Below are positions 7,656-64,000 of a stretch of 64,000 nt of DNA, one piece after another. Under the pieces are notes generated by a model. It was not told the DNA's origin. It saw nothing but the letters and a program-made list of their open reading frames with translations, and did no database searches. The first letter of the stretch is position 1, and each line of letters starts with the position of its first letter. The translations under genes were made by a program, and so were the position numbers. Source of the DNA: Centroscyllium fabricii (lineage: Eukaryota); assembly GCA_051313645.2 (NCBI GenBank), contig JBNRSN020000001.1, positions 260,896,001 through 260,960,000 on the forward strand, read 5' to 3'.

Positions 7656-8045
7656 TTACATGGGGGCCCCACAAGGCTGTGTGCTGAGCCCCCTCCTCTA
7701 CTCGCTCTTCACCCGCGTCTGTGCGGCTGTCCGCGGCTCCAACACGATCAAGTTTGCGGACGACACCACGGTAGTTGGCCAGATTGTGCTAATTGTGTAA
7801 ATACCACTGTAAATAGTTGATGGCACCTTGGTATTGTATTGTAGGCCAGGTCAGCCACACCCCTAACTCCTCCCCTCAGGTCGGAGCATATAGGTGAGGG
7901 CTGCCCTGCCCCCGCTCATTCTTCTCCTTGAACTCATCAGGAGACCAGCTCCATTGTTAGTTAATAAAAGCCTGTAGTTTAGGTAACTACTCGTCTTTGC
8001 GTTTTAATTGACGATACATCAATGTTATTAACTAAATTTTAAAAC

Positions 8046-11000
8046 ATGGAGAGTAACGCAGTGAAACCGGATCGCCTCCACATAAATCCTCAGGCACCCG
8101 ATGCTGCTAACGACTTCGAACACTGGTTTAGCGTGGTTGAGGCCTACATGAAGGCCGTAAAGGCTACGAGTGATGAGGACAAACTCCAGGTACTCTCATC
8201 ACGGATCAGCGGCCGGGTGTACTCTTTTATCCGCGGCCTCAAGACTTACTAGGAAGCGGCCAAGAAATTAAAGGACTGCTACATGTGCCCGGCCCATGTG
8301 GTCTATGCCAGGCATGTTCTGGCGACCAGAAGACAACGACTCGGTGAGTCAAATGAACAGTTTCTACTAGTGCTCCAAGCCCTCGCACGGGCCTGCGACT
8401 GCCAGGCAAGGACAGCGGAGGAAGAGGCGAATCTCCCAATCCGAGATGCCTATGTGGCTGGACTCAGGTCCAGCCAGGCCCGCCAGCGGCTGGTGGAGCA
8501 GGACACACTGTCGCTTGAGTCCGCGATAACGGTTTCTAATGCGGTGGACGGAGCGCTTCGAAAACTGGAGGCGTACGGAGATCACGGCTCCCACTGTACC
8601 CCTGACCCCTGGGTGACACAGCGACAGGCCGAGACCCCCACGATGGCAGCGGCGACTGCGAAGACACCGGCGGGGCACAGATGCTACTTCTGCGGCCAAG
8701 GAAAGCACCCGCGGGCGCAGTGCCCTGTGAAGAATGCGACCTGCGCGCGGTGCGCGAAGAAGGGGCACTACGCGAAGGTGTGCAAATCCAGCCCAGCCTC
8801 CACCTCCAGACCCAACAGCGCGGCCTGCGAGAACAGCGATGCCACTCCATGGCTCCAGGTACGGTGTTGCAGCACGACCCAGCAGCGGTCAGCCGGTGGT
8901 AAATCGCGAGCGCCTCAATCCCCTTTAACTGTACGGCGGAGGCCGGCCGCGCGCGCGGCACAGGTGCTGCCACCTCAAACGCGACCGCGACCGGCCATGT
9001 GCGACCCCCTGGTGCCGCCATCTTGTTCACCGTGTTCGGCCGCGTGCGAACCACGGGCGCCGCCATCTTATCCACAGCGGTCGGCCATGTGCGACCCGCC
9101 GCCGCCGCCATCTTGTCCACCGCTGTCGGCCGCATGCGAACCACGGGCGCCGCCATCTTATCCATAGCGGTCGGCCATGTGCGAGCCCCCGGCGCCGCCA
9201 TCTTGTCCACCGCGGTCGGCCGCGTGCGAACCACGGGCGCCGCCATCTTATCCACAGCGGTCGGCCACATGCGAACCACAGGCGCCGCCATCTTATCCAC
9301 CGGTCGGCCGCGTGCGAACCACGGGCGCCCCGCCATCTTCTCCACAGCAGTCGGACACGTGCGCATTGCCAGCGCTGCCATCTTCTGAGCGGCCATCTTG
9401 CCAACTGCCCCGGCCGGGGCCCCAGCAAGCGGAGGGCCCCCACTCACACACATACACTTCGGCCTCAGCCACCGTCGATCAGGCTAGGCCGCACACCTTG
9501 TCCAACTCCATGATGGGGATTAAGGTGGACGGGCACGCCACTAGCTGCCTGTTCGACACCGGTAGCACAGAGAGCTTTATACATCCCGACACAGTGCGGC
9601 GCTACGCACTGCAGACCCAGCCCACGCACTACCAAGTCTCCCTTGCCTCAAAGTCCCACACGGCGGACGTCACCGGCTACTGCAGCGTCACGCTCACGAT
9701 CAGGGACCGCATTTACCGCAACTTTTAAGTTGTACATACTCCAGCAGCTGTGCGCCCCAGTCTTACAGGGACTGGATTTCCAGTGTCACCTGAAGAGCGT
9801 GACGATGGATTTCGGTTGAACCCTGGCCCCCCTCACCGTCAGTAGCCGGGACAATCGCAACTTAACACGGAGCTCGACTTGCGGCCTGTCCACATTAAAA
9901 GTCGACCCCCCCTCACTGTTCACCAATCTCGACCCTAAATGCAAGCTCATTGCTACCAAAAGTCGGCGTTACAGTGCAGGGGACCGGGCGTTCATCAGGT
10001 CAGAGGTCGAGCGCATGCTGAAAGAAGGGATAATTGAGGCCAACACCAGCCCCGGGCGGGCCCAGGTCATGGTGGTTAAGACGGGCGAGAAACTGCGCAT
10101 GGTCATCGACTATAGCCAGACGATTAACCGCTACACCGGGCTCGACGCCTACGCCCTCCCCCGCATCTCGGATATGGTAAACTAGATCGCCCAGTACAAG
10201 GTCTTTTCCACAATCGACCTCAAGTCGGCGTATCACCAACTCCCCATGCGGAAATCCGACCGCCAGTACACCGCCTTCGAGGCGAACGGCCGGCTCTACC
10301 ACTTTCTCCGGGTCCCCTTCGGTGTGACCAACGGGGTGTCGGTGTTCCAGAGGGAGATGGACCGCATGGTTGACCAGAACGGGTTGCAGGCCACCTTCCC
10401 CTACTTGGACAACGTGACCATCTGCGGCCATGACCAGCAGGACCACGATGCCAACCTCGCCAAATTCCTGCACATGGTGAAACGGCTGGACCTAACATAC
10501 AATAAAGACAAGTGTGTCTTTAGTACGGATTGGCTCGCTATCCTCGGATACGTGGTGGAAAACGGAGTCCTCGGCCCCTACCCACAGCATATGCACCCCT
10601 TGCAAGAGCTGCCCTTACCTCACAACCCCAAAGCCCTGAGGAGATGTCTAGGGTTCTTTTCTTATTACGCGCAATGGGTCCCCCAGTACGCGGATAAGGC
10701 CAGACCTCTCCTCAAGGCCGACGTCTTCCCCCTCTCGGAAGAAGCCCAAACGGCATTCGCTCGGATCAAGGAAGACATCATCAAGGCGACCATGCACGTC
10801 GTTGATGAGTCCATTCCCTTCCAGGTGGAGAGTGACGCTTCGGACTTTGCCCTTGCCGCCACCCTGAACCAGGCAGGCAGGCCCATAGCGTTTTTCTCCC
10901 GGACCCTACAGGGACCCAAAACTCGCCACTCAGCGGTGGAAAAGGAGGCCCAGGCCATCGTGGAGGCAGTGCACTACTGGCGTCATTACCTGGCCGGTAA

Positions 11001-12257
11001 GCGTTTTACCCTGCTCACCGACCAGCGGTCGGTGGCGTTTATGTTTAATAATAAACAACGGGGTAAGATCAAGAATGATAAGATCCTTCGGTGGCGGATC
11101 GAACTCTTGACTTACGAGTACGACATTCTTTACCGCCCAGGCAAGCTCAACGAACCCCCGGACGCACTGTCCAGGGGAACGTGCGCCAGCGCCCAGCTTG
11201 ACCGGCTGAAGGCCCTCCATGATCGCCTCTGCCACCCGGGTGTCACCAGACTCGCCCACTTCGTCAAATCCCTTAGCCTCCCCCTACTCCATCACGGAGA
11301 TAAAGGCTATGACCAAAGAGTGCCCTGTCTGTGCCGAGTGCAAACCCCAATTCTACAGGCCAGACACCGCACGTCATCAAGGCCACCCACCTCTTTGAAC
11401 GCTTGAGCGTGGACTTCAAAGGCCCCCTCCCCTCCACTGACCGCAAATCGTATTTCCTTACGGTCATAGACGAGTTCTTACGCTTCCCCTTTGCCTTCCC
11501 CTGCCCAGACATGACGAGCGCAACGGTAATCAAACACTTCACCATGCTGTTCGCCATTTTCGGTCTCCCCAGCTAAATCCATAGCGACCGGGGGTCGTCG
11601 TTGATGAGCGACGAATTGCGTCAGTTCCTGCTTCAGAAAGGGGTTGCCTCAAGCAGAACGACCAGTTACAACCCCCAGGGGAACGGCCAGGTAGAAAGGG
11701 AGAACTGGACCATCTGGAAGGCGGTCAACCTGGGCCTGAAGTCCAGAGGCCTTCCAGTTTCCCGTTGGCAGGAGGTCCTCCCAGACGCGCTCCATGCCAT
11801 CCGCTCTCTGTTGTGTACCGCCACTAACTCCACACCTCATGACCTGTTGTTTTCCTTCCCCAGGAAGTCGACTTCGGGGACAGCACTCCCGCTGTGGCTC
11901 ACAGCGCAGGGGTCAGTATTACTTAGAAAGCACGTCCGCGGCCACAAGACCGACCCCCTGGTGGAACGGGTGCACCTGCTCCACGCCAACCCGCAATATG
12001 CTTACGTGGCATTCCCGGACGGGCGCGAGGATACAGTCTCGATCATGGACCTGGCGCCCGCCGGGAGCACTGGGGCAGAACCCCCGGTCGAGCCTCAGCC
12101 CGACCAGCCACCACCCACCGAATACTGGCCCCCATATATACACACACCCTCAACACCACCGATCGACGACCCGGGATCGGACACCGTACCGCTGGCACCG
12201 TTGGCGGAGAGCTCGATCCCGGCCCTGCGACTGGCACCACCATTGCCGGCACCCTAG
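8046..12257 (+). pseudogene. gag-pol of element A (several stops and frameshifts)
   Basis: CYFCGQGKHPRAQC and CARCAKKGHYAKVC knuckles, LFDTGS protease, RT YLDN (10402-10413), RNase H ESDAS/EKEA/TDQR, integrase HHCC and VDF..SDRG..QVE. Confidence 0.92.
8990..9400 (+). repeat. 45-nt (15-codon) tandem repeat in the Gag-PR linker of element A
   Basis: GCCATCTT recurs at 9017, 9062, 9107, 9152, 9197, 9242, 9287, 9332, 9377 (exact 45-nt period) and 9392; alternating 90-nt higher-order unit. Confidence 0.92.
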
Positions 12258-14156
12258 CGGTCCCCCAGGCAGACACGACTGCCGGAGAGACTAAGAACGC
12301 AATGCTAATTATTAATGGACATATAGAGTTTTTTTTTACCAGAAGGCACGTTCACCCCGCCGGACTTGTTTTTAAAGAAGGGGTGAATGTGGTAATCGTG
12401 TAAATACCACTGTAAATAGTTTATGGCACCTTGGTATTGTATTGTAGGCCAGGTCAGCCACGCCCCTAACTCCTCCCCTCAGGTCGGAGCATATAGGTGA
12501 GGGCTGCCCTGCCCCTGCTCATTCTTCGCCTTGAACTCATCAGGAGACCAGCTCCATTGTTAGTTAATAAAAGCCTGTAGTTTAGGTAACTACTCGTCTT
12601 TGCGTTTTAATTGACGATACGTCACAGATCACCAACAACGATGAGTCAGCCTACAGGGACGAGATTCAGCGCCTTATGGGATGGTGTGCTGATAACAACC
12701 TGGCACTGAACACCAAGAAAACCAAGGAGATCATAGTGGACTTCTGGAAGACTAAAAGCAGAAGACACACCCCCATCTTCATCCAAGGGGCTGAGGTGGA
12801 AAGGGTGTCCAGCTTCAAGTTCCTCGGGGTCCACATCTCGGAAGACCTCTCCTGGTCACTAAACACCTCCTCTCTGATTAAGAAGGCCCAATAGCGCCTG
12901 TACTTCCTAAGGAAGCTGAAAAAAGCCAAGCTGTCATCCGGCATCCTCACCAACTTCTACCGCTGCACAATCGAAAGCATACTGACAAACTGCATCACAG
13001 TCTGGTATGGGAACTGCACCATCTCGGACCGGATGGCCCTGCAGCGGGTAGTCAAAACTGCCCAACGAATCACCGGCACCCAGCTACCGTCAATCGAACG
13101 CACCTACCTCAAACGTTGCCTACGGAGGTCTCTGAACATTATTAAAGACCCCACACACCCCAGCCACAGTCTGTTTGCCCCCTGCCCTCCGGGAGATGCT
13201 ACAGATCAATCCGTACCCGCACAACCAGATTCAAGAACAGCTTCTTCCCCAGGGCTGTCAGTCTCCTGAACTCTAACAAAAAACTCCAGTATCTGCACAC
13301 CTGAAATGTACTTTAGTGTATGAAATTGCATGTAACTTATTTGCACTACTCTCGGGAGCGGCGAGTCTTCGTTTCGTTGTATTGTACTAGTACTCTGCAA
13401 TGACAAAAAAACTTGAATTGAATTGAGTGGTAACCCCCAGGATGTTCAGAAGTGAAAGTGAGATATTAGACACAGTCAAATTGCAAAGGTATATGGGGAG
13501 TGGGTAGGAGGTGGGTGCTGGATTTGGATGATCAGCCATGATATTGTCAAAATGGCGGAGCAGGCTCGAAGGGCCGAATGGCCTACTCCTGCTCCTATCT
13601 TCTGTGTTTCTGTGTAAGAAAGATAGACCACGAGCAGTGGAAATTGGAAATAGAAACTGAAAACCCACAGTAGGTCAGTCAGCACCTGAAGAAGATTCTG
13701 GGTGAGAATCTTTGTCAGAACTGGGTAAACAAAAGTTACAGTTTCGGCATCAGGACAGCATCTGAGTTGCTTGGATTAGATTAGTCACTCTGAGGAACTG
13801 TTCCTATGTCTGGATCCAGTGGATTGAAATGATTTTCGGCTTTGGCTCAAATAATTGTCAAATGTCTGACAATCACAGCGACCCCTTTGTGTTACTGACC
13901 CCCAAAATTGATGAGAGTGTGGCGGTACGCCGGCTGGCGAATCCGCCTCGGGAGTACTGCGGGGCATAGCCCCGCCCACCGGGTGACGCGATGACGTCAC
14001 CACGTCTCTCGGCGTGATGAGGTCACGAGCGGCGGGTAGTTTAAATAAGCCTGCTCCTCGTGGTTCAGTCTCTTTCTTGTTATGTAGTGTTAATTAAACA
14101 AGTTTTATCTCTCTCTCCGGCTCCTGTGTGGTTCTTGGGTCCTGCAAGCGCTACAG

Positions 14157-14169
14157 TGGTGACCCCGAC
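14157..14169 (+). promoter_or_regulatory. Primer binding site complementary to tRNA-Trp 3' end
   Basis: TGGTGACCCCGAC 1 nt after the 5' LTR of element B. Confidence 0.85.
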
Positions 14170-14246
14170 TTGGAACGTCTTCCAAGGAGAAAACAGCAGC
14201 TACAGGACTGAAAACCAAGCAGCCTCAGAACACTTTCAAAAACAAC

Positions 14247-17200
14247 ATGACTTCCAGAAACCAAGCTTCTCGTTCACAAGGACTTGGCCAGAACCCCGGG
14301 CACAGACTAACTCTACCGGAGTTCTGGGAGCAACGCCCGGCAGCGTGGTTTATGTGTATAGAGACCAGCTGCCGCACACATGGCATCCAGGGGGACGACC
14401 GCTACGACCTGGTCTTTTCGGCCCTACCACAATCGACGATCGATCGGATGTGGTCGAAGCTACAGCGCGTGCCCGCAGCAGGCAGGTATGAATTTCTCAA
14501 GGCCGCGCTACTTAAAAAATTCACCCCCTCCCAGTTCGAGCGCGACTGCCAACTCGTTAACCTCCCCAAACTCGGGGACGCAGACCCATCGGACCTTTGG
14601 GGCCAAATGCAAGTGCTCACCGCCGATCCCGCCTCCCTGTTCGGCACCATATTCCTCCTTAAACTGCCCCCCTCCATCAGACCGGCCCTGGCGGCCTTCT
14701 GCCACCGGAGCGGGGACGAGCTAGCCGAGGAAGCCGACAGGCTCATGGCGGCCGAGCGCACCCGCTCCGCCACGTGCGACCTCACTGCCGCGGCAGTCGA
14801 GCCCACCCACTCGCCCCCCAGGTCCAACCCAACGCCTGAACCCAGACCCCCGCGCCCTCCCAAGCAACCGCTCCATCAAGCACCGGTTGGTGCTACTACC
14901 ACACGCGGTTCGACACCAAAGCGCACCGCTGCGTCCAGCCCTGCACGTTCAAGCCACGGCCCGGCCCAGCCCCCACTATGTCTGTAGGACACACCGGAGC
15001 ACTGCTCTACGTCACAGACAACGGCACAGGCCTCCGGTTCCTCTGCGACACAGGCGCACAGCACAGCATCGTGCCAGCCTCCCCCGCAGAAGCCAAAAAA
15101 GGCACCCGGGGCCCGCCACTCGCGGCGGCCAACGGCTCGGACATCAAAACGTACGGCACCCGCAAGCTAACAATCCAGCTTGCCGGCCACACGTACCAAT
15201 GGGAGTTTGTCACGGCCCAGGTCACTTCACCCCTCCTCGGGGCAGATTTCCTCTGCGCCCACGGCCTCCTGGTCGACATGACCCGGCGCCGCCTGGTCGA
15301 CATTCAAAATATGTCGACCATCCCATGCTCCACAGGGCCCGCACTCCTGGCCCACGCGGCGGCACAATGCCGTGCCCGGAACTCTGACGCGTACGGCTCG
15401 CTCCTCGCTGAGTTCCCAGCCCTTACCAATCCCACCTTCACCGCCCGCACGGCCAAACACGGGGTGGAACACTTTATCACCACCACCGGCCCTCCCGTGC
15501 ATGCCCACGCCCGCAGACTGGACCCGCCCAAGCTGGAGATTGCGCGCACCGAGTTCCGCACTATGGAGCAACTCGGCATAATCTGCCGCTCCAGCAGCCC
15601 CTGGGCCTCTCCCCTCCACATCGCCCCCAAGCCGGGCGGGGGTTGGCGCCCCTGCGGCGACTACCGCCGCCTCAACAATGCCACCACCCCGGATAGGTAC
15701 CCCATACCCCACATCCAGGATTTCTCCGCCAGGCTAGCGGGTTGCACGGTCATCTCCAAGATCGACCTGGTGCGTGGCTACCACCAGGTCCCGGTGCACC
15801 CGGCGGATGTCCCTAAGACAGCCGTAATTACCCCCTTCGGCCTGTTCGAGTTCCTCAGGATGCCCTTTGGACTCAAAAACGCGGCCCAGGCCTTTCAGCG
15901 CCTAATGGACAGTTCATTTTCGTCTACTAAGACGACATCCTCGTGGCCAGCACCTCCCCCCAGGAGCACCTCCTGCATCTCAGGACCCTGTTCCAGCGCC
16001 TGACCGAACACGGCCTCATATTAAGCCCCTCTAAATGCAAATTCGGCCTAGATATTATAGACTTCCTGGGCCACCGCATTTCCAAAACCGGGGCCATACC
16101 CCTGCCCTCCAAAGTGCAGGCAGTTCAGGAATTCCCCCGCCCGCACTCCATTAAGGGCCTGCAGGAGTTCCTCGGGATGGTTAACTTCTATAACCGCTTC
16201 ATCCCAGGGGCAGCCGCTCTCATGGCCCCCCTATACCAGGCCACACGCGGGCAGTCCGGCAAAACTGCGGTCGAGTGGACGGCCGACGCCGCCACCGCGT
16301 TTACCGCAACCAAGACCGCCCTGGCCAACGCCACTCTCCTAGCCCACCCCAGGCCCAACGCCAGAGTGGCCCTCACCACTGACGCCTCCGACCACGCTAT
16401 CGGGGCCGTTTTCGAACAGTGGGTGGGCGGGCAACTCCTGGCAGCCCCTGGCCTTTTTCAGCCGGCAACTATGGCCCCCGGAGGTCAAGTACAGCGCCTT
16501 CGACAGGGAGCTCCTCGCTCTGTACCTCGCTGTGCGCCATTTTCGCTTCCTCCTGGAGGGCCGTCCCTTCACAGCTTTCGTCGATCATAAGCCGCTCATA
16601 TTTGCAATGGCTAAGATCGCCGAACCCTGGTCGGCCAGGCAGCAGCGCCAACTCGCAGCCGTGTCGGAGTTCACTACCGACATCCAACACATCTCCGGCC
16701 GCGACAACGTGGTTGCTGACTGCCTGTCACGTCCCACCATTAACGCCACCCAAATGGCGGTCGACTACGCCAAGCTGGCAGCAGACCAGCTGGCAGACCC
16801 AGACCTGCTCGACCCAGCAGAAAACCTCCCTGGCCTACGCTTGGCCAACATCGCACATGGCCCCGCGGCCACCGTAGTCTGCTGCGACGTATCGTTACCG
16901 CAGCCCAGACCCGTCGTCCCCCACGCATGGAGGCGGCGCATTTTCGAGACCCTCCATGGCCTGTCCCACCCCGGCACCCGTGCCTCCATTAAACTTATTT
17001 CGGCCCGTTTTGTGTGGCGCGGCCTACGCAAAGACGTCCGTGCCTGGACCAACACCTGCATCGCCTGCCAGCGCGCCAAAGTGCACAAGCACATCAAGGC
17101 CCCGCTGGAAACGTTTACCGTGCCGGCCAGGCGCTTCGACCACGTCCATGTCGATCTCGTCGGACCACTGCCGCCATCCCGGGGCCACACACACGTCATG

Positions 17201-18056
17201 ACCATGGTCGACCGCAACACTCGCTGGCCAGAAGCAGTCCCCCTGGTTTGCTACCAACACCACGGACCTGGCCAGGGCGTTCATCGCGACTTGGGTCGCC
17301 CGTTTCGGCGTGCCCACCGACATCACTTCGGACAGAGGTCCCCAATTTACGTCGGCACTATGGGCGGCCATCGCCCATGACCTCGGGGTGACCCTGCATA
17401 GAACCACCGCGTACCACCCACAAGCTAACGGGCTCTGCGAAAGGTTCCACCGCTCCATGAAAGCATCCCTGCGGGCCAGCCTCAAAGATGCATCATGGAC
17501 AGACCGTCTTCCTTGGGTACTGCTCGGACTACGCTCGGCGGCCAAAGAAGATTTGCACGCCTCAGCAGCGGAACTCGTCTACGGCCAGACTTTAAGAGTG
17601 CCGGGCGAGTTTCTCGCCGAATCAAACGCTCCCTGGTCGGCCGACCAGTTCCTCAAGGACTTTGCCAACCCGGCACGAGCGTTCACACCCTTACCGGTGG
17701 CCCGGCATGGAGAGCCGGCGGCACGTGTACCGGACAGCATCAAGCACGCAAAGTACGTGTTCGTCCGGCACAACGCCCATCGTTCACCTCTACGGCCACC
17801 TTACGACGGCCCCTACAGAGTGCTTCGGGCGGGATCCAAAGCTTTTCAGCTACAGCTGGGCAATCGGACAGAAACTGTCTTCATCGACCGGCTGAAACCA
17901 GCACACATAATAGCGGGCGACGCGACAGTCCCCGCCCAACCACCTCAACGCGGACGCCCTCCCGCACCAACACCCGCCCACACTCCACCGCAGCACCAGG
18001 AGCAACGCACGACACGTGCCGGCCGCATCTTACGGCCACCACGACGCCTCGCATAA
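14247..18056 (+). pseudogene. gag-pol of element B (frameshifted; RT motif broken: TAC TAA GAC GAC near 15925)
   Basis: FLCDTGA protease; PWASPLH, GDYRRLN, RMPFGL RT; TTDAS RNase H; HGLSHPG..CIAC, HVDLVGP, TSDRG integrase; GPY motif. Confidence 0.92.
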
Positions 18057-18499
18057 GACTCTTTTTCCTCTCGGACGGATTCTGGGGGGAGCTGTGTGGC
18101 GGTACGCCGGCTGGCGAATCCGCCTCGGGAGTACTGCGGGGCATAGCCCTGCCCACCGGGTGACGCGATGACGTCACCACGTCTCTCGGCGTGATGAGGT
18201 CACGAGCGGTGGGTAGTTTAAATAAGCCTGCTCCTCGTGGTTCAGTCTCTTTCTTGTTATGTAGTGTTAATTAAACAAGTGTTATCTGTCTCTCCGGCTC
18301 CTGTGTGGTTCTTGGGTCCTGCAAGCGCTACAAGAGCATAATTGCCCTCTTCTCCTCTCCCAGTGCAAAATATATACAGGTCTAAGTGGTGCTCTCCCTG
18401 AATATTCTTGTGGATGAAAATAAATTTACGGCTTTCTTATTCGGGAGAAGCAACGTTCCACCTTTGGCATTCTGCAGCTTGGCGTCGACAGAACCATCG

Positions 18500-34210: not shown

Positions 34211-34671
34211 TACTAGCTTTATTTATTTAATTTAAATTCCCCAGCTGCCATGGTGGGATTTGAACTCATGACTCTGGATCATTAGTCCAGGCCTTCTGAA
34301 TTACGAGCCCAGTGACATTACCACTATGCTACCGTATCACAACCTCGAGAGTAACGATAAGCAACTTCACTGATAGCACCATAAAGAAAAGAAAAAATAA
34401 ATTTTGGATTCCAGGATCTACTTACTTGGGCGTTGTCTCCCAGGGTTTATGCTGTTAAATCCATTTTATGGGGGGTGGGTCCCAGCCGAAGGCTGATAGA
34501 CCCGAGCAAAAAAAACCCTGCAACCTTCATCGAGTAGTCGCAATGTTAGAAAAGGCTGCGCTGACCTTTTGAGGACAGCATCGGCAACATTTCAGCCGAT
34601 GCAATCAGTGTGGCAACCTTAGCTCTGGAGAGCAATCTTAACATGTTTGTTTTTTTCCTTGCATTTTTCAG

Positions 34672-34946: not shown

Positions 34947-35117
34947 GAAATAAAAAACCAGAAAATGCTGGAAATACTCAGCAGGTCAGGCAGCATCTGT
35001 GGAGAGAGAAACAGAGTTAACGTTTCAGGTCGATGACCTGAAACGTTAACTCGGTTTCTCTCTCCACAAATGCTGCCTGACCTGCTGAGTATTTCCAGCA
35101 TTTTCTGTTTTTATTTT
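34947..35117. repeat. Near-perfect palindrome built from Penelope terminal repeats
   Basis: Arms of about 80 bp around a GAT loop at 35032-35034 (...tttcaggtc GAT gacctgaaa...). Confidence 0.9.
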
Positions 35118-35516: not shown

Positions 35517-35792
35517 CCCAGTATAGACCTGACGTTACGGGTTAGTGCCGCATCAGACAGTATTAGGCGGTTCTAAGTGCCAAGTCATAAAATGATCGAA
35601 CAATTGACATACAGAAAACTCTTGTTTAAACGGCACCTAACTAATTCTCTATTAACTGGCAAAATTCTCATGCCGAAAACAACACCTCAATAACTACTAG
35701 ATTGATTCCCGGGATGGCCGGACTGACATATCAAGAAAGACTGGATCAGCTGAACTTGTACTCTCTGGAGTTCAGAAGAATGAGGGGGTGAA

Positions 35793-38700
35793 TGTGGTAA
35801 ACCACTCTTTCCTGTATATATCCACCCTGTTATGTATATATTTGTATTACTGTAATCGTACTATTCTCCATGTTGTACCATAGCCCATTGTGTGCGATTA
35901 CCTGGACATGCCCATGCTGGCTCCGCCTGCGACTCCTCCCTCCCGGGAGGAGGTACATAAGCGGCCGTCTCCCATCCCCCTGCCATTCCTGGGGACGGTC
36001 GACTAGCTGGTGCATGTCCACATTTGGCGAATAAAAGCCACATTGTTTTACCCTCTTAACTACTCGTCCACGAGGTCGTTATTTCGGTCACAATTTTATT
36101 CGCTAAATTTGACGATGGACGCAATGCTCAAGCCAGCAACGTTCGAATTGGATCCCCGGACACCAGGCGCATCAAATACATTCTCGCACTGGTTCGACTG
36201 TTTTGATGCGTACATGAGAGCGAACGCAGCGGTCGTCAGGACCGAAGAAGACAAACGGCGGCTCCTCAACGCCCGGGTGGGCCCTCAGGTGTACTCCATG
36301 ATCGTAGACGCATCATCATACTTGGATGCAATCAGGATCCTCAAAGCGGAGTACAACCGGGCACCCAACATCGTCCACGCCAGACACATTCTGGCCACCA
36401 GAAAACAGCAACCCGGTGAGTCCAGCGTGGAATTTCTACGCGCGCTGAGAGTACTATCACGGGCCTGTGACTGCAGAGCGCAATCGGCCCAGGTCCATGT
36501 GGACAGTCTGATCAGAGACGCATACGTGACAGGCCTCAGGTCGGACTATATCAGACAAAGGCTGTTAGAATAGAACGGCCTTGACCTGCAGGCAACAGCG
36601 GACCTGGGCAACGCGCTGGATGTGGCATCACTACACTTGTCGTCATACTCCGGCAACTATACGGGCCCAGCCCCGACAACTTGGACAACGCCGGCACAAC
36701 GGCCGGCGGAAGAAATGATCGCAGCCGCCCACGCTAACACGGCAAAATGCTACTTCTGTGGGCAGCCTCAGCATCTGAGACGCAGCTGCCCGGCAAGAGA
36801 CGCGGCCTGCTCGAAATGTGGCAAAAAGGGACACTACGCTAAAGTCTGCAAGGCGACTGCAGCGCCAAAACCGAAACCGGGCAGTGCCGCGTGTGGGACA
36901 TGGGGGCAGCCATATTGGACTCAGCCATCCCCCACTCAGCTCACCGCGTGGCAGCAGACGCCATATTGGACCCAGCCACCCCCTCCGCAGTACACCACAT
37001 GGCGGCAGCCATCTTGGGACCAGGCCCTGGAGGACTTCTCTTCGGATCAAGAGGAATCGACCGATCCGATATTAGCATCAGTTACCTTGGATCAGAACAA
37101 GGCTCAACCACTCGGGCAGTCGATGATGCCGGTGGGAGTGAACGGACAAGACGTCGAGTGCCTCTTCGACAGCGGGAGCACGGTGAGTTTTGTCCATCCT
37201 GAAACAGTAAGGCGCCTCTCCCTTAAGGTTATGCCAGCGAGCCAAAAGATCTCAATGGCTTCCAAGTCGGAATCTGCGGACGTCTCCGGGCGTTGCGCAG
37301 TGGCTCTAACGGTATGGGGCGTGCACTTTAGTAACTTTAACTTTTTCGTGCTGCCGCAGCTCTGCGCTCCATTGTTATTGGGTCTGGACTTCCAGTGCCA
37401 TCTCCAGAGCGTTACCATGTCGTACGGTGGGCCCCTTCCCCCACTCACGGTCAGCAACCGCCGCTCGGCGCAGCACCCTCGGCGCGCTACCTGTGGCCTC
37501 TCGACCCTTAAGGTCGCCCCTCCCTCACTCTTTGCTAACCTCACCCCGGACTGCAAGCCCGTCGCCACCAAAAGTAGGCGCTACAGTGCTGGGGACATGG
37601 ACTTTATCAAGTCCGAGGTGAAGCGCCTCCTGAAGGAGGGGGTTATCGAGGCCAGTAATAGCCCCTGGAGGGCGCAGGTAGTGGTGGTGAAGACTGGAGC
37701 TAAGAACCGGATGGTAGTGGACTATAGCCAGACCATTAACCGGTTCACCCAGTTAGACGCATACCCCCTCCCCCGGATAGCGGACATGGTAAATCAGATC
37801 GCGCAGTTTCGGGTTTTCTCAACCATAGATCTGAAGTCCGCATATCGCCAGCTCCCCATTCGCCCAGAGGACCGTCTCTATACCGCTTTCGAGGCTGACG
37901 GTCGAATCTACCACTTCCTCAGGGTCCCGTTTGGCGTCACGAATGGGGTCTCGGTCTTCCAAAGGGAGATGGACCGAATGGTCGATCAGTACGGGCTGCG
38001 AGCCACTTTCCCGTACTTCGATAATGTGACCATCTGCGGCCACGATCAGCAGGACCATGACGCTAACCTCCAGAAATTTCTCCACACCGCCAAAACACTC
38101 AACCTGACCTATAACACAGAAAAATGTGTGTTCAGGACCACCCGCCTCGCCATCCTCGGCAGTGTTGTGGAGAATGGGGTCATCGGTCCCGACCCGGACC
38201 GCATGCGCCCCCTCCTGGAGCTCCCCCTCCCCCACTCCCCCAAGGCCCTTAAACGGTGCTTGGGTTTCTTTGCCTATTACGCCCAGTGGGTCCCCAATTA
38301 TGCGGACAAAGCTCGCCCACTGCTTAAATCAACCTCATTTCCCCTGTCCGCAGATGCCCGCGCGGCGTTCTGCGGCATTAAGGACGACATTGCAAAGGCA
38401 ACGATGCACGCTGTGGACGAGTCCGTCCCGTTCCAGGTAGAGAGCGATGCATCGGACTTTGCCCTGGCCGCCACCCTTAACCAGGCGGGCAGACCCGTGG
38501 CCTTCTTCTCACGTACCCTCCAGGGCCCCGAGACCCGTCACTCCTCAGTCGAGAAGGAGGCCCAGGCCATTGTTGAAGCAGTGCGTCACTGGAAGCACTA
38601 CCTGGCCGGCAAACGATTTACCCTGCTGACTGACCAACGCTCAGTCGCTTTTATGTTCAACAACAAAGAGCGGGGTAAAATCAAGAATGACAAGATACTG

Positions 38701-40426
38701 AGGTGGAGAATTGAGCTCTCCGCGTTCAATTATGATATCTTGTACCGGCCCGGGAAATTCAACGAACCCCCAGACGCCCTGTCCCGCGGTACCTGTGCCA
38801 GCGCACAGACAGACCGACTACAAACCCTGCACAATGACCTCTGCCACCCGGGGGTCACCAGGTTGGTTCACTTTGTGAAGTCCCGCAACCTCCCCAACTC
38901 CATCGAGGAGGTCAAGACCATGACCAGCAACTGCCAGGTCTGTGCGGAGTGCAAGCCGCACTTCTATTGGCCAGACCGGGCGCATCTGATCAAGGCCACC
39001 CGCCCCTTTGAACGACTCAGCGTCGATTTCAAAGGGCCCCTTCCCTCCGCCAACAGGAACGTGTACTTCCTTAACGTCATTGACGAGTACTCCCGCTTCC
39101 CCTTTGCCATCCCCTGCCCGGACATGACCTCCGCCACCGTCATCAAAGCCCTCCACAGCATCTTCTCTCTGTTCGGCTACCCCAGCTACATCCATAGCGA
39201 CCGGGGGGGCCTCCTTTATGAGTGACGAGCTGCGTCAGTTTCTGCTAGCCAAAGGCATCGCTACTAGCAGGACTACCAGCTATAACCCCCGGGGGAACGG
39301 ACAGGTAGAGAGGGAGAACGCCACTGTCTGGAAGGCCATCCTGTTAGCCCTACGGTCTAAAGGCCTCCCAGTCTCCCGCTGGCAGGACGTCCTCCTGAAG
39401 TGCTCCACTCCATCTGGTCCCTCCTTTGTACGGCCACTAATGCCACCCCTCAGGAGCGACTTTTTGCCTTCCCTAGGAAGTCGGCTTCCGGGACCTCGCT
39501 GCCATCGTGGCTACTATCCCCGGGACCAGTCCTACTCCGGAAGCATGTGAGGGGCCACAAGGCAGATCCCCTGGTCGAACGGGTCCACCTCCTGCACGCC
39601 AATCCCCAGTACGCCTACGTAGCGTACCCCGACGGGAGGGAGGACACCGTGTCCATCAAGGACCTGGTGCCAGCGGGAGCCCCCAAACCCAGCCCCGCCC
39701 AGCAGCCCGCACCCCCACGACGGCCAGCCACTCCACCCGGGCCACCGACGCCAAGGTACGCTCCGCGGCACGAGAATCCAGCACCACGGTTCGTCCACCC
39801 GGCACCTGTAGGCAGCACGGCATGGCCTCCAGCATGGCTCCACAGTACACGCCTCCTAGAGTCAGACGACGAGGGAGAGAGCGCGCCACCTACTGTCACC
39901 GCAAGGGCACCAACGAGGAATCAACCAACGCAACCGGCCATCGCTCGTCCACCGGCATCATCACCAATGGTGCAACCAACCCAACCGGCCATTCCACGAC
40001 CGCCGACACCACCAGCGGTGCGCCGATCAACCAGGATTACCAGGCCGCCTGAGCGACTTAATCTGTAAATTAAAAGAACTGTCGCGTTCACCCCGCCGGA
40101 CTTTTGTTTTAAAGAAGGGGTGAAATGTGGTAAACCACTCTTTCCTGTATATATCCACCCTGTTATGTATATATTTGTATTACTGTAATCGTACTATTCT
40201 CCATGTTGTACCATAGCCCATTGTGTGCGATTACCTGGACATGCCCATGCTGGCTCCGCCTGCGACTCCTCCCTCCCGCGAGGAGGTACATAAGCGGCCG
40301 TCTCCCATCCCCCCTGCCATTCCTGGGGACGGCCGACTAGCTGGTGCATGTCCACCTTTAGCGAATAAAAGCCATATTGTTTTACCCTCTTAACTTCTCG
40401 TCCACGAGGTCGTTATTTTGGTCACA
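35793..40426 (+). mobile_element. Ty3/Gypsy element C (same lineage as A), full length, in a STAG2-like intron, inserted in a CR1
   Basis: LTRs 35793-36092 and 40126-40426, TSD GGGGG (35784-35788, 40427-40431), PPT aaagaaggggtgaaa. Confidence 0.96.
36115..40068 (+). pseudogene. gag-pol of element C (one TAG at 36571-36573, frameshifts near 39205 and 39397)
   Basis: 867-aa open stretch with two CCHC, LFDSGS, RT YFDN (38014-38025), RNase H, integrase. Confidence 0.93.
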
Positions 40427-55874: not shown

Positions 55875-56569
55875 CAGGTTGGGCACCGTTAATCCGGCAC
55901 CCGAAAAACCGGCAGCTTCAGTCGTCCGGCACGGATTTTCCCGACTGCCCGGTGCATGCGCAGACCATTCAAAATGGCCGCCGTCGGGCCTGGGCTTCCC
56001 TTTCACCTCACAGATACTCACTGGATCCCGGCTTAGTGACCACCCTGATGCCGATGGTGAATCCCAGACCCAGACGTTGAGCTGTTGTGTCAGCCGCCTT
56101 TCACAGGACGCGGTACAGCCAAAACCCGGTGCCCAGGTCTGCCATCGCTGCCGGAGGTTCCTGCCTAGCTGCGTGCTGACGTCACCGCGTTCCGAAGCTG
56201 GCGTGCGGTGGCATCGCGTGAGCCGCGCATCGGGCCTCAGGCCCGCTGGAGCCGTGCAGCCCGCTCCCTGATCCGCCATGGGCAGCAGAATCGAGTGCGT
56301 CTTGAGTTCCACCCGACCCTTGGACCGAAAATCACCTTCCAGGTACCGGCGAGTGCATGTGCAGACCATTTTAAATTTTGCGACGGCCATTTTGAATGGT
56401 CTGTGCATGCGCCGCCAAACGGCGAGCACATGCACAGACCATTCCAAATTTCGCGGCGGCTATTTTGAAAGGTCTGCGCATGCACCACCGAAGCTTCAGT
56501 CGTTCGGAGTTTTCACTTTTCCAGCACGGTCCTGGTCCCGACCGTGCCGGATTAACGGTGCTCAACCTG
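55875..56569. mobile_element. Tigger/pogo-like MITE
   Basis: ~26-bp TIR caggttg(g/a)gcaccgttaatccggcac, TA TSD. Confidence 0.9.
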
Positions 56570-57027: not shown

Positions 57028-59117
57028 TGACGTATCGTCAATATCTCTTAATAAAAGACTGGACGAGTAGTTACCGTAACTATAGGCTTTTAATAACTTA
57101 CTTTGGAGCTACCCTCCGAACGAACATCAGAACAGAATGAGGGAGCCTCGGTCAGTCCTCACCTATAAAGGCCTCACCTGGGGGAGGAGTTAGAGGTGTG
57201 GCTGACCTGGCTCCACAACAGTATTACAGGCTGTGTATCCCACACAGCCAATTGTTGGCAACAATAATGCAGTGGTAAATATATACAATATGGGTTACCA
57301 CATTCACCCCTTCTTGAAAATTTTAAGTCCGGTGGGGTGAATGGACCGAGCAGTTCAATATGAGCTTGTCCAGCGGTCGTGTCAGCCTGGAGGACTGCCG
57401 GAGTTTCGGTGATGGTTTCTCGTGGTCCGTGCTGCTCGAGTCCGTTGGTGGTGACAGCGGCTCTGGTGCCGTGGTTTCAGATGATGGTGGTCTCAGATGG
57501 TCCGAGCTATCGGAGTGGTGGTCTTGGGCTGGCCACGGCTGGGGCTCTGGAAACCTCGGAGGCCATCGTAGGTGTAGGGGGTGTTCTGGGTACTGTGGCT
57601 GGGCGGGCTGCTGCCCGACCAGGGGCTCTGCTGCGGTGCTTCCTGCGGGCGCCAGGTCCCTGATGGATACGGTGTCCTCACGCCCGTCCGGGAACTGTAC
57701 ATATGCGTATTGTGGGTTCGCATGCAGGAGCTGCACCTTGTCCACCAGGGGGTCGGTCTTGTGACCACGGACGTGTCTCCTAAGGAAGACCGGCCCCGGT
57801 GTCGTGAGCCATGGAGGAAGAGCTGTCCCCGAAGTCGACTTCCTGGGGAAGGAAAAAATCAAGTCATGAGGGGTGGCGTTAGTGGCCGTACACAGGAGAG
57901 AGCATATAGAATGCAGCGCGTCTGGGAGGACTGCCTGCCAATGGGCCACTGGAAGGCCTGTGGACTTCAGAGCCAGGGTGACCGCCTTCCAGATGATCCC
58001 ATTCTCCCTTTCTACCTGGCCGTTCCCCCGGGGGTTATAACTGGTCGTTCTGCTCGTGGCAACCCCTTTCTGGAGCAGAAACTGACGCAGTTCATCGCTC
58101 ATGAACGATGACCCCCGGTCGCTATGGATGTAGCTGGGGAGACCGAAGATGGCGAACAGCGTGGTGAAGTGTTTTATCACCGTTGCGCTCGTCATATCTG
58201 CGCAGGGGAAGGCGAAGGGGAAGCGGGAGAACTCATCTACGACCGTGAGGAAGTATGAGTTGCGGTCGGTGGTGGGGAGGGGGCCATTGAAGTCCACGCT
58301 GAGACGTTCAAAGGGGCGGGTGGCCTTGATGAGGTGCACCGTGTCTGGCCGGAAAAATTGGGGTTTGCACTCGGCGCAAACAGGGCACTCTCGGGTCATA
58401 GCCTTGATCTCCGTGATGGAGTAGGGGAGGCTACGGGATCTAACGAAGTGGGCGAGTCTGGTGACACCCGGGTGGCAAAGGCGGTCGTGGAGGTCCTTCA
58501 GCCGGTCTAGCTGGGCACTGGCGCACGTTCCCCTGGACAGTGCGTCCGGGGGTTCATTGAGTTTACCTGGTCGGTAAAGAATGTCGTACTCGTAAGTCGA
58601 GAGTTCGATCCGCCACCGCAGGATCTTATCATTCTTGATCTTACCCTTTTGTTTATTATTAAACATAAACGCCACCGACCGTTGGTCGGTGAGAAGGGTA
58701 AAACGCTTACCGGCCAGGTAATGACGCCAGTAGCGCACGGCCTCCACGATGGCCTGGGCCTCCTTTTCCACTGCAGAGTGGCGGGTTTCGGGTCCCTGTA
58801 GGGTGCGGGAGAAAAACGCTACGGGCCTGCCTGCCTGATTCAGGGTGGCAGCAAGGGCAAAGTCCGAAGCGTCGCTCTCCACCTGGAAGGGAATGGATTC
58901 ATCAACAGCGAGCATTGTTGCCTTGATGATGTCTTCCTTTATCCGGGCGAATGCCGTTTGGGCTTCTACCGAAAGGGGGAAAACGGCAGCCTTGAGGAGT
59001 GGTCTAGCCTTGTCCGCGAATGTGGGACCCATTGTGCGTAATAGGAGAAAATTCCTAGGCATCTCCTCAAGGCTTTGGGGTTGTGAGGTAGGGGCAGTTC
59101 TTGAAGGGGTCGCATAC
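57028..59117 (-). mobile_element. Ty3/Gypsy element D (close to A): 3' LTR 57028-57302 plus RNase H-integrase; rest displaced beyond the window
   Basis: 579-aa ORF 57323-59062; LTR tgtggtaac...gatacgtca; PPT aagaaggggtgaa on minus strand. Confidence 0.93.
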
Positions 59118-60042
59118 TGTCACAGGGCGCCTTTCCCTTTAAGGATTCAAGAGAGCTAGGTTGTGTGCCACACACCTGTTTTGAAGACTTGTTCCCCTGT
59201 TATTCAACTATTATATCAATTAATGGTTTCACATGCCTGTGTGTTCCTGGTTCTCATTGCCTGCAGCTTATTGGCTAACACTAAATAATCTGTTTGCCTG
59301 TTTGGGCTTATAAGCTGGATGCTTTGACCAGGCAGGTGCGGGATCATTGATTGGATTGACTTACTACAAACTACTGGAAGAAGTGGTTGCTGTTCTGAGC
59401 TGTTGGAGAGGCAATGGGTTTGGGCTTTCCCCTGCCCTGTGGATGACGTATTCTCTTCGGGAAACTCGGTTAGAGTGAGACTAGCTGTGGAGCGGACTTC
59501 TGAGAACTACAGTTGTCAACATTCTGGACATTGCGTTCTGCCACCTGAAGCTCAGGTTTGGACATTCCATCTGTTAAGTAAGGGCGTTCCCCTGCTAGTA
59601 GATCAGGTATTCTCTTCCTCAGAAGACTCCGTTGGAGTGAGTCTCGACCGTAGGGCGGACTCGGAAGAGATCCAGAATCTACTCCTTGGACATTGGTCGT
59701 TATTACCCGAACTGAGGTTTGGACGTTTCAGTAGGGTATGTGAGGAGTCTCAATGTTTGAGGATGGATTCTTTCCTTCTGAAGACTCTGAAGAGATGGGT
59801 TCCAGCTTTAGGGCGGACTCTGGGAGAGTTCCATTACTCATCCAAGACATTGCTCGCACCCACCTGGATTCAGGGTTGGACATGTATTCCACTATACTAT
59901 AATGCGCTTGGCTGCGTAGCATTCCACGCAACTATGGGAAGTTTGTACCAGTTCTGAAAGGAACTTGTTTTCTGTTTCTATCTTTGTATGTAGCAACTGT
60001 AATAAGCTAGTGCCAGTTTTCCGTCGAAGACTTGTTTAGATG
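59118..60042 (+). mobile_element. Long LTR (related to solo LTR 22531-23525) inserted in element D and itself interrupted by element E
   Basis: Starts tgtcacagggcgcctttcccttta; shared blocks tattggcta, tgcgggatcatt, tggacatt.catctgtt..gtaaggg. Confidence 0.75.
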
Positions 60043-63000
60043 TGTGGTGATATTGGCTATAACACCAACTATGTGTATGTACATGCCTTAGGGCGTGTCT
60101 ACTCTTGCCCAGCCAGACTTGGGAGACCTGTACCTGGAGGACCTCGGGTAGGCCACGCCTCTGACCCTGGGGGTATAAAGGTCAGCACTCGTGGGTTCTG
60201 ACCTCCTCTCTACTGTACTGTACTAACGATACCTGTGATCCCTTACGCTTGTTCTAAGTTTATTAAAGCCTATGTTAACTCGCTCTCTGACTCAAGTAAT
60301 TGATGGTATCAATTTAATAAACTTAGATCGTCGCTAAAATCCAAAAATGGACCGAATTCTGGCTGTCCCGATCTTGGAAATTGATGCGACTGCTCCCGAT
60401 GCCGAACGCCGGTATAAACACTGGGAACAACAGCTAAGGAGCTATATCGACGAAGTGAAAGAGACCGCTTCAACTGATCAGCAGAAGAGCCGAATTCTAC
60501 ACTGCAGAATCAGTGCTGACCATTACCACCTCATCGAAGGGGAGTCAGATTACGAACAGGCCATGAAGAAGCTGAAAGAACACTTTGTGCCAGCAGCCAA
60601 CGCTGTTCACTTAAGGCACTTGTTGACTCAGAGGGCCCAGAGCGCCGAGGAACCGGGCGCCAAATTCGTGAAAGAAATTTGTGCGCTGACCCGAGATTGC
60701 GCCCCTGGCCCCCTGACGGCGGACGAACACTACAACGAACTGGCACTGGACGCTCTGGTAAGAGGGGTATACTCCCCATATATCAGGGCCCGACTGCTAG
60801 AACGGGATGAGCTAACGTTAAAAGAAGCAGCCTCCCTGATTGTAAATCTGGACAATGCAGATCGGAGATCCACCACGTATGGCTAACCAAGCGCGCCTAC
60901 GTGGGCATCCCCAGCCCCAACTCCTACCCCAGCGCTAACGGCAGCGGCAGGAAGAAGCAGGCCTGAAACCAACCAAAAGTGTTTCTTTTGCGGAAAAGCT
61001 AGGCACTCTAGACTGCGCTGCCCAGCCAAAGATGCTACGTGCTCGGGGTGTGGAAAGAAGGGGCACTATGCCGCGATGTGCCGCGCAACAGGGCAGAAAA
61101 AGAAGGCAGCCCCCATCTGCAGCGGAGCGAGAGCGGCACCACGTTCCTACTACACGGAGGTAGATGACCGCGAGGGAGCACCACGAGGCGGCGGCCATCT
61201 TGAGGCCACAGCTAGGAGGAGCGGCCATCTTAGTTCATTACCACGAGGCAGCGGCCATTTTGAGGCCACAGCTAGGAGGAGCGGCCATCTTAGTTTATCA
61301 CCACGAGGCAGCGGCCATTTTGAGAGTCTTCGACTTGACTCCGACCCCGAATATTCGGATGAAGACGACTCATCAACCGTGCTGGCGTCCATCACTTTGG
61401 ACCAATCAAAACCCCATGAACTGCAGAAATCAATGATGGACGTCCAGGTAAACGGACAAAACTGTAACTGTTTATTTGATACGGGTAGTACTGATAGTTT
61501 TATTTCCCCCGAGACTGCTGACCGTCTTCACCTGTCGATCCGCCCCTGTTTAAAACGCATCGCCTTGGCGGCGGACTCAGAATCGGCGCAGGCCGTGGGG
61601 TGTTGCGTAGTATCACTTGTAGTTCGCGGGGTAAAATACTGTAATTTTAAACTGTTTGTGTTACCCCACTTGTGCGCCCCTGTGTTATTGGGGCTCGATT
61701 TCCAGAGCCACCTGCAGAGTGTCACCTTGGCATACGGCGGCCCTCTCCCACCCCTGACGGTCGAGTCGAGTACCCCCCGTGAGCGCCCGCTTTGTGGGCT
61801 CACCACTTTACGGATCTCACCCCCGAAACTGTTCGCGAACCTCACGCCGGACTGCGCACCGATTGCCTCAAAGAGCAGGCGGTATAGTGCTGCAGACCGG
61901 GCGTTTATTGGCACCGAGGTGAAGCGACTGTTGGCAGAGGGGGTGATTGAAGCCAGCCGCAGCCCCTGGAGGGCCCAAGTAGTAGTGGTAAAGACGGGGG
62001 AGAAGAACAGGATGGTGGTCGACTACAGTCAGACCATAAACCGGTTTACACTCCTCGATGCGTACCCCCTTCCCCGGATCTCGGACATGGTAAATGAAAT
62101 TGCCCAATACAAAGTCTATTCGACTATAGACCTTAAAGCGGCATATCACCAGGTCCCAATCCTCAGAGAGGAGCGCCCCTATACCGCTTTCGAAGCGGAT
62201 GGTCGCCTCTATCAGTTCCTTCGGGTTCCCTTCGGAGTGACGAACGGAGTGTCCGTCTTCCAGAGGGAAATGGATAGAATGGTAGACGAACACGGGCTCA
62301 GGGCCACCTTTCCCTATCTAGATAACGTCACTATCTGCGGCCACTCGGACGAGGACCACGACGAGAACCTCGCTAAATTTTTGAAAACAGCCAAATCCCT
62401 GAATTTGACCTACAACAAAGAAAAATGTGTTTTCCGCACCAGACGCCTGGCTATTTTGGGCTGTGTGGTGGAAAACGGGTTAATCGGCCCGGACCCTGAC
62501 CGAATGCGCCCGCTGATTGAGTATCCCCTTCCCAAGACACCCAAAGCTCTAAAGCGGTGCATGGGGCTGTTCGCGTATTACGCGCAGTGGGTCCCGAAAT
62601 TTGCGGACAAAGCCCGGCCTCTGATGCGGGCCACTGTTTTTCCCCTGTCGGCAGCGGCGCTAACGGCTTTTAAGCAACTTAAAGCCGATATAGTAAAAGC
62701 TACAATGTCCGCCATTGATGAGGACGTGCCTTTCCAAGTGGAGAGCGACGCGTCCGACTTCGCCCTGGCGGCGACCCTGAACCAAGCAGGCAGACCCGTT
62801 GCCTTCTTTTCCCGTACCCTCTCGGGCTCGGAAGCACGGCGTTCCTCCGTGGAAAAAGAGGCCCAAGCCATTATCGAAGCGGTGCGCCACTGGAGACACT
62901 ACCTGGCCGGTAGAAAATTTACCCTGCTCACCGATCAGAGGTCGGTAGCATTTATGTTTAGTAACACACAGCGGGGAAAAATTAAGAACGATAAGATCTT

Positions 63001-64000
63001 GAGGTGGAGGATCGAATTGTCCACCTTTAATTATGATATTTTGTACAGGCCAGGTAGACTCAACGAGCCGTCCGATGCACTGTCCCGCGGGACCTGCGCC
63101 AGCGTGCAGGCGGGCAGACTGCAGGCTCTGCATAATAACCTCTGCCACCCGGGGGTCACCCGCTTCTATCATTTTATCAAAGCCCGCAATCTACCGTATA
63201 GTATTGCGGAGGTTAGGGAGATAGTCAGGGATTGTCCGGTCTGTGCGGAATGCAAGCCGCAGTTTTTCCGACCGGACAAGGCACACCTGATTAAGTCCTC
63301 TCGGCCCTTCGAACGCCTTAGTATCGATTTTAAGGGCCCACTCCCGTCCACCGACAGGAATGTCTACTTCCTCACAGTCGTGGACGAATACTCTCGTTTC
63401 CCATTTGCGATACCCTGCACTGATATGACTGCTGCCACAGTCATCAACGCCCTCGCCCCGATATTCGCAATATTCGGCTTCCCCTCATTCATACACTCTG
63501 ACCGGGGGTCTGCTTTTATGAGCGACGAACTGCGCCAGTTCCTACTCGCGAGAGGAATCTCGTCGAGCAGGACAACGAGCTACAACCCCCGGGGCAATGG
63601 CCAAGTAGAGCGCGAGAATGGCACTGTCTGGAAGACGGTCCACCTGGCACTCAGGTCCAGGGGCCTTCCAGCCTCACGCTGGCAGGCGGTTCTCTCGGAC
63701 GCTCTACACGCCGTACGGTCGCTTCTTTGTACAGCGACCAACGCAACGCCGCACGAACGGATGTTTTCCTTCCCCAGGAAGTCCGTCTCGGGGATGTCGC
63801 TGCCGTCGTGGCTAGCCTCCCCGGGCCCAGTACTGTTGCGGCGCCATGTACGGCACTATAAGACCGACCCACTGGTCGACAGGGTACTCCTCCTCCATGC
63901 TAACCCGCAGTACGCCTATGTGGAGTTCCCTGATGGCAGGAAGGACACAGTCTCTATTAAAGACCTGGCGCCCGCAGGCGCCCCTGCGACCACAACTCCG
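60043..64000 (+). mobile_element. Ty3/Gypsy element E (A/C lineage), 5' LTR 60043-60311, runs off the window
   Basis: tgtggtga...gtatca LTR with TATAAA and ATTAAA; Gag starts 60347. Confidence 0.93.
60347..64000 (+). CDS. Single-frame gag-pol of element E, open except for one TAA at 60884-60886
   Basis: Gag ATG, CFFCGKARHSRLRC, CSGCGKKGHYAAMC, LFDTGS, YLDN (62315-62326) and terminal KDLAPAG all in the same frame. Confidence 0.85.

Follow-up and report, generated by a model that had tools for sequence, protein, structure and literature searches.

Pairing of a poly(A)-signal arm with the primer-binding site in a Ty3/gypsy retrotransposon clade of Centroscyllium fabricii: a likely variant of self-primed reverse transcription

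The window analysed here, a stretch of 64,000 nucleotides, contains most of an LTR retrotransposon, element E, in which a segment of the 5' LTR faces its own reverse complement directly behind the LTR, and the question raised by this locus is what purpose the resulting helix serves. The two segments, TCTAAGTTTATTAAA (60253-60267) and TTTAATAAACTTAGA (60313-60327), are exact reverse complements separated by 45 nt and form a 15-bp stem, as the initial annotation of the window had stated; the ATTAAA hexamer, which that annotation placed ahead of the helix, lies inside it, at the 3' end of the 5' arm (60262-60267). A perfect 15-bp inverted repeat with a loop of at most 100 nt was found in 0 of 40 composition-matched simulations of the window, and the real window has only two other spots with such a repeat (~34970-35090 and 56394-56445). 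The folding energy of the whole region of E is not unusually stable (z = -1.39, not significant). The helix pairs the poly(A)-signal region of the LTR with the primer-binding site (PBS) of a Ty3/gypsy retrotransposon, the features of which are collected in Table 1 together with those of the other elements in the window.

Table 1. Positions of the features of element E and of the neighbouring elements, numbered within the window.
Feature	Position	Strand	Remarks
Left TSD of E, AGATG	60038..60042	+	Repeated past the 3' LTR, beyond the window
E 5' LTR	60043..60311	+	269 bp, TG...CA
E 3' LTR	window-equivalent 64348-64616 (L031:5348-5616)		1 of 269 bases differs from the 5' LTR
TATA box, TATAAA	60174..60179	+	Predicted
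Arm 1	60253..60267	+	R-region sequence ending in ATTAAA (60262-60267); putative 3' end of the self-primer
GCC right after arm 1	60268..60270	+	Putative cut site between 60267 and 60268
Spacer A	60312..60312	+	From LTR end to PBS
Arm 2 (PBS)	60313..60327	+	Complementary to arm 1, without TGG
E gag-pol frame	60347..64000	+	Capsid-like region, protease, RT, RNase H, integrase
Two CCHC knuckles	60980-61021, 61040-61081	+	
RT motif YLDN	62315-62326	+	
Element A	7785..12624	+	Same clade as E; LTRs 7785-8021 and 12390-12624, TSD CAGAT
Element A helix	7957-7967 / 8025-8035	+	11 bp, with AATAAA
Element B	13918-18332	+	CsRN1-type Gypsy; TGG PBS one base after the LTR, 4-bp TSD, frameshifts
Element C	35793..40426	+	Same clade as E; arm ending 36036, PBS from 36094, with AATAAA
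Element D	57028..59119	-	Same clade, 5'-truncated; RNase H, integrase, PPT, 3' LTR; no PBS left
Element D 3' LTR	57302-57028	-	With ATTAAA

Element E is a young Ty3/gypsy element. Its Pfam domains follow the gag-PR-RT-RH-IN order of the Ty3/gypsy superfamily (Metaviridae) between the LTRs, the best PDB match of its protein is Ty3 Gag-Pol (E 8e-59), and the LTR features of the superfamily are present as well, with TG...CA termini, a polypurine tract (PPT) preceding the 3' LTR and a target-site duplication of 5 bp. This copy carries an in-frame stop at 60884-60886, and the first 200 codons are free of stops in 28 of 29 siblings. The reverse transcriptase has YLDN at the place of the YXDD motif of the superfamily, and among 120 homologues YxDN was found in 97 and YxDD in 21, with no motif found in the other two. 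YxDN is a clade-wide variant and no argument against membership in the superfamily, because the clade is evidently mobile, with LTRs that differ at one of 269 bases and thousands of near-identical copies. A literature search for YLDN together with retrotransposon returned no paper. No chromodomain was detected in the pol tail of E or of three homologues at E values up to 0.1, nor among the 120 homologues.

The nearest named proteins are from sharks and rays (72-79% identity), followed by those of cnidarians and a nematode, and many matches lie on unnamed marine contigs. The PPT/LTR motif of the clade has 169,842 matches in the genome, against 65 for the control, and the 200-kb neighbourhood of E holds one further element (L046). 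In 28 of 30 family-E insertions (L001-L030) a G stands directly before the LTR, which suggests a target-site preference. The protein atlas returned only generic Gypsy clusters for the clade, and five candidate stretches among viral contigs were unrelated to it. The clade RT words RAQV, DYSQ, DNVT and DNIT had no match in a supplement with RT sets of 80 and 418 elements, in which gapped rows can hide words; the motif words of the clade had none in the searchable supplements of two mollusc/annelid clade papers and of the Saci2 paper, and a word search of PMC8556966 gave none either. The full-text literature searched contained no paper describing the PBS of the clade, and subscription journals, Repbase and figures (Saci2 Figure S6, clade trees) may hold one.

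Of the other elements in the window, element B serves as an internal control for tRNA priming, its PBS and TSD fitting the CsRN1 description in the part of PMC2582038 that was used. A PPT-like GGGGGTGAA (35783-35793) stands before the 5' LTR of element C, where the target has a G-run, and GGGGG is found to the right of the element; the left end of element C is possibly unprocessed and inserted by microhomology. The gag-pol frame of element A contains a 45-bp tandem array (8942-9392), and shorter repeats with the same GCCATCTT/GGCGGCCAT core stand at the corresponding place in elements C and E. Long perfect inverted repeats at 34960-35110 and 56394-56445 are MITE-like or hairpin repeats unrelated to E, and a tRNA-Thr(CGT)-like gene reported by ARAGORN at 34244-34339 (-) may be the head of a SINE.

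A pairing confined to this copy, the outcome that the initial annotation had named as fatal to its reading, is not what is found. The same arms are present in 29 of 29 siblings, which were picked by similarity to the query and are not an unbiased sample, and the exact LTR/PBS junction of E occurs 4,485 times in the genome (control 0). The initial annotation had also regarded the joint change of hexamer and partner as the strongest covariation evidence in the window and had proposed an alignment of family copies. That alignment was uninformative; within E's own family no covariation is seen because the arms of the copies are identical, and the covariation is real across the other subfamilies. 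These were sampled as the first 80 PPT/LTR sites in genome order, of which 27 had no paired LTR within 6 kb; of the 53 with paired LTRs, ten lacked a TSD or a whole LTR and 43 passed this filter, giving 46 elements with the addition of E, A and C, the last without a TSD check. Over pairs 1-13, 581 of 598 cells are Watson-Crick, 2 are G-U and 15 are mismatches, the 46 elements being related, so that the cells are not independent events. Compensatory changes occur at pairs 4, 6, 7, 8, 9, 10, 11, 12 and 13 (pair 6, for example, is A-T in 28 elements, T-A in 17 and mismatched in one), and pair 14 is matched in 18 of 46 elements only.

The geometry around the helix is fixed to a similar degree. The spacer A is found in all 46 elements and GCC follows the arm in 42, the loop between arm 1 and the PBS measures 40-61 nt, and the hexamer inside the arm is AATAAA in 27 elements and ATTAAA in 19. 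None of the 46 has a PBS starting with TGG, as in the tRNA-primed Gypsy clades (CsRN1, Mag and others), and no TGG lies within 8 nt of the LTR in any of them; canonical TGG sites in other copies were the further finding that the initial annotation would have taken as contrary. In the control flank, which follows the 3' LTR, matches to the LTR do not exceed 7 nt. The summed length of a second stem that begins at the putative cut is 102 over 25 elements, related ones included, versus 73 in shuffled sequences (1 of 2000 shuffles reached 102); in E this stem comprises only 3 bp. In LTRs of the A/D group (e.g. L118, L125 and L132) a second complement of the hexamer is present inside the LTR, in U5, about 30 nt after the hexamer; it covaries with the hexamer in 21 of 23 carriers (11 ATTAAA/TTTAAT and 10 AATAAA/TTTATT), and 20 LTRs are without it. 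This internal complement, absent in E, could form an alternative hairpin in both LTRs.

The helix was also followed into metagenome loci, 80 of which were kept out of 341, with 38 that include upstream DNA being scanned. In 23 of the 38 (16 families) a helix, mostly of 12-19 bp, was found at offset 0-1, the LTR end of ten of these loci being placed from CA and the distance to gag and not from paired LTRs. Six loci gave chance-like matches only, away from the LTR end, and nine gave no match, none of these nine having been shown to include a 5' LTR. AATAAA and ATTAAA are missing from the arm in six of the 16 families (L161, L162, L163, L167, L213 and L226), with the hexamer of L161 and L162 lying outside the arm, in the loop; RCC after the arm is found in most of the distant families and varies less than the hexamer does. 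In L163 a long near-perfect palindrome with 21-bp arms and an inner stem (-62.7 kcal/mol) lies upstream of the element (~600-700).

Self-priming in one form or another, by a 5' or a 3' copy of the arm, is highly probable. The best explanation, which we consider reasonably likely, is that minus-strand DNA is primed not by a tRNA but by a 5' fragment of the element's RNA, which pairs with the PBS and is released by a cut. Priming would take place at arm 2. This arm occupies the position of a PBS, a single A past the LTR end, and throughout the clade it is the complement of arm 1. With an RNA start about 40 nt before the arm, as suggested by aberrant genomic copies in sister families, the primer would measure about 52 nt, of which no more than the last ~13-15 nt would be paired. 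A cut between the A-run and the conserved RCC would free a 3' OH, the likely nuclease being the RNase H of the element, by analogy with Tf1. Plus-strand synthesis would then copy the primer into the new PBS, a step that has been shown for Tf1 (PMC11042837), and keep the arms strictly Watson-Crick, and an overrun of this copying would leave extended copies in the genome. The same helix is predicted to hide the poly(A) hexamer in the 5' LTR, the copy in the 3' LTR having no partner. Normal copies stopping after ~13 nt are left unexplained by the 5'-primer model.

Extended copies of this kind were sought with a pattern fixed beforehand, consisting of the LTR end, the PBS and the reverse complement of the upstream R motif, which is blind to extensions under ~24 nt. 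It gave 675 matches in the genome (control 0), corresponding to 0.56% of 120,142 junctions, with 237 and 37 matches in two other families and six in E's family; extended copies make up 0.13-0.56% of the junctions. The first 90 of the 675 in genome order, which belong to the A/D group, were read and aligned to natural LTRs: in 21 the extension stops within R, in 19 it reaches the initiator A to within one base, in one it stops four bases past that A, and in 49 it runs into U3. Of the 19 stops at the initiator, 14 fall exactly on the initiator A and they lie 28-30 nt after TATA; they use nine distinct landing sites (P ~4e-4 for the pile-up against the rate inside R), and nine share one landing site in gag with short microhomology, so some may be clonal. 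Most of the shorter extended copies then land in internal sequence of the element, whereas nearly all of the 49 U3 copies reach the LTR start, 13 of them with perfect 5-bp TSDs and eight running onward into the PPT. In family C, of which 30 of the 237 were read, 12 copies stop on the initiator A or on the next base and differ in their landing sites, eight run into U3, one stops a few bases past the initiator and nine stop earlier or are unclear, two rows having been reclassified by eye; in the third family (30 of 37 read) about four stop close to the initiator and about 21 continue into U3.

The extensions in the sister families reach 51-54 nt to the initiator A, and from these positions the RNA of these families would start at an initiator A 28-31 nt after TATA and ~40 nt upstream of the arm. 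For E the start is extrapolated from them, because all six extended copies in its own family (still six when two mismatches are allowed) run through U3; a clear initiator was not found in E at the expected distance from TATA. Reverse transcriptases can copy the cap G, and at 12 of 21 distinct landing sites the base after the stop is a C (P ~0.005), which fits copying of the cap G but is suggestive only. As genomic fossils, the extended copies show that DNA ending in the PBS was extended on a plus-sense template carrying arm 1; this template may have been either the primer or intact RNA reached by a mis-jump, and the fossils are no proof of a primer. The U3 copies are beyond what a 5'-fragment primer can supply and need a 3' LTR copy or a fold-back of DNA. 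Fold-back elements of ~500 bp, composed of a whole LTR, one A and an inverted U3-R copy with perfect 5-bp TSDs, are present at L242, L251, L254, L256, L260, L267, L301, L306, L322, L327, L334, L337 and L339, and are apparently integrase-inserted by-products. At G000:C335:139983542-139984709 four extended family-C junctions stand 378 bp apart in a tandem array of an aberrant LTR unit.

The existence of such fold-back insertions with TSDs also lends something to the view that the complementarity is a by-product at the DNA level, arising by fold-back or gene conversion in replication with no role in the RNA. We judge this extremely unlikely, since products at 0.13-0.56% of junctions are not frequent enough to uphold a rule that holds across the clade, the element would have no primer at all, and fold-back gives no reason for a stop at the initiator. 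A role confined to masking the poly(A) signal of the 5' LTR, with a host RNA or tRNA fragment as the primer, accounts for the hexamer within the arm in 46 of 46 elements here and in 10 of the 16 distant families, and for its predicted pairing: the mean unpaired probability of the hexamer is 0.10 at the 5' LTR versus 0.52 at the 3' LTR (higher at the 3' LTR in 43 of 46), and in E the values are 0.03 and 0.74. Two genomic copies have a terminal A-run, 11 and 16 nt past the hexamer, which agrees with its use as a signal, the search for poly(A)-tailed copies to map the RNA 3' end having given three matches at two places only, a weak result. This account is nevertheless very unlikely, because masking has no need of a partner one base from the LTR end nor of the near absence of G-U pairs, and a host primer would have to track 29 distinct arm/PBS 12-mer variants among the 46 elements. 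Masking as the conserved core of the helix is likewise unlikely: since six of 16 distant families keep the helix without AATAAA or ATTAAA in the arm, and two of these have the hexamer elsewhere, the conserved role is probably priming, with masking, as the folding predictions suggest, a probable second one.

Within self-priming, the main rival to a 5' fragment is a 3' copy of arm 1, from the same or a partner RNA, which would pair with the PBS, be cut or trimmed after the A-run and prime; in that case the first strand transfer would make use of the 40-nt R leader, and the primer would be shortened by RNase H to ~13 nt. The U3 copies speak for it, as 49 of the 90 extended copies and all six of E's family run through U3, including those with TSDs or PPT sequence, and it accounts for the sharp 13-bp limit and for an arm ending near the RNA 3' end. 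It must, however, treat the 40 of 90 A/D copies and most family C copies that stop at or before the initiator as mis-jumps onto the 5' end; moreover, the local 5' arm should outcompete a partner 4 kb away, and the U3-type products carry two ends for the integrase and are likely to be over-represented. Recombinant LTRs, compared as a test of the 5' against the 3' primer, yielded two weakly discordant pairs and no usable chimeras among 59 LTRs. On balance we regard the 3' primer as unlikely and retain the 5' fragment as the preferred reading.

A wider picture built on the 5' fragment seems to us evenly poised between being right and wrong. It holds that self-priming arose in a large, unnamed lineage of animal Gypsy elements whose reverse transcriptase has YxDN, and did so independently of the chromoviruses, that a single helix conceals the 5' poly(A) signal and, through a cut where the signal ends, yields a capped ~52-nt primer, that re-copying in each cycle generates the compensatory changes automatically, and that overruns preserve the start of transcription, the position of the cut and perhaps the cap. 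If true, this would be a second design of self-priming, in which a long primer ends on the poly(A) signal; the lineage using it is non-chromoviral, numbers on the order of 100,000 copies in a single vertebrate genome, and is related to elements of cnidarians and a nematode; tRNA-free priming would be widespread in animals, would probably have arisen more than once, and would be coupled to the control of premature polyadenylation. The extended copies may offer a readout of the priming mechanism and of RNA start sites from genome sequence alone, LTR annotation based on the PBS would miss or mislabel the clade, and the clade-wide YxDN active site poses a separate question of enzymology.

Among known systems, the poly(A) hairpins of retroviruses such as HIV-1 occlude AAUAAA with both strands within the LTR and are combined with tRNA priming, whereas the partner in E is the PBS and is present only after the 5' LTR. 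The Kuafuorterviruses (Troyka), as described in part of PMC11673190, resemble the E clade as animal LTR elements with an altered YXDD motif that are abundant in cnidarians, but their motif is IADD, VADD or LADD and the Troyka TSD is reported to be 3 bp, in contrast to YLDN and 5-bp TSDs in E; an assignment of E to Kuafuorterviridae/Troyka was rejected on the motif. Skipper of dictyostelids is like the E clade in having no TGG PBS, and unconventional priming has been proposed for it, but according to the part of PMC5006619 used here it has a polypyrimidine stretch without an LTR complement, whereas the complement in E is exact. Self-priming has been predicted for two plant lineages, the chromoviral Ty3/gypsy lineage Tcn1 and the Ty1/copia lineage TAR, by a PBS that starts 0-5 nt after the LTR and has its complement in 10 nt or more of the 5' LTR, as is found in the E clade; one of these lineages is chromoviral and the other copia, and the part of the source used mentions neither an overlap with a poly(A) signal nor a primer length (PMC6317226).

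The closest likeness is to Tf1/Tf2 of Schizosaccharomyces pombe, Tj1, Tosmo and the Tf1/sushi chromoviruses, which, in the parts of the cited reports drawn on here, share with the E clade the Ty3/gypsy domain order, the lack of a tRNA PBS, a PBS right after the CA of the LTR that is complementary to the LTR, and the need for a cut to free the primer (PMC7175516, PMC4600332, bioRxiv 2022.12.06.519325). The PBS of the E clade is complementary to its own 5' LTR, as in this group. [quoted passage not shown] Unlike in Tf1, the paired part in the E clade would lie ~40 nt inside R, as mapped from fossils in sister families, and usually ends on the poly(A) hexamer; the self-primer of Tf1/sushi is the extreme RNA 5' end of ~11 nt, whereas the sister-family fossils point indirectly to 51-54 nt. 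The RT motif also differs, being mostly YxDN in the E clade (97 of 120 homologues). In Tf1/sushi three duplexes form a 'pretzel' around the PBS; in the E clade the second stem at the putative cut has modest support over the 25 elements and little in E. The E clade would work like Tf1/sushi self-priming but departs from it in the chromodomain after the integrase, which was not found, and probably in the 5'-terminal 11-nt primer, and is likely to represent a variant of this known mechanism.
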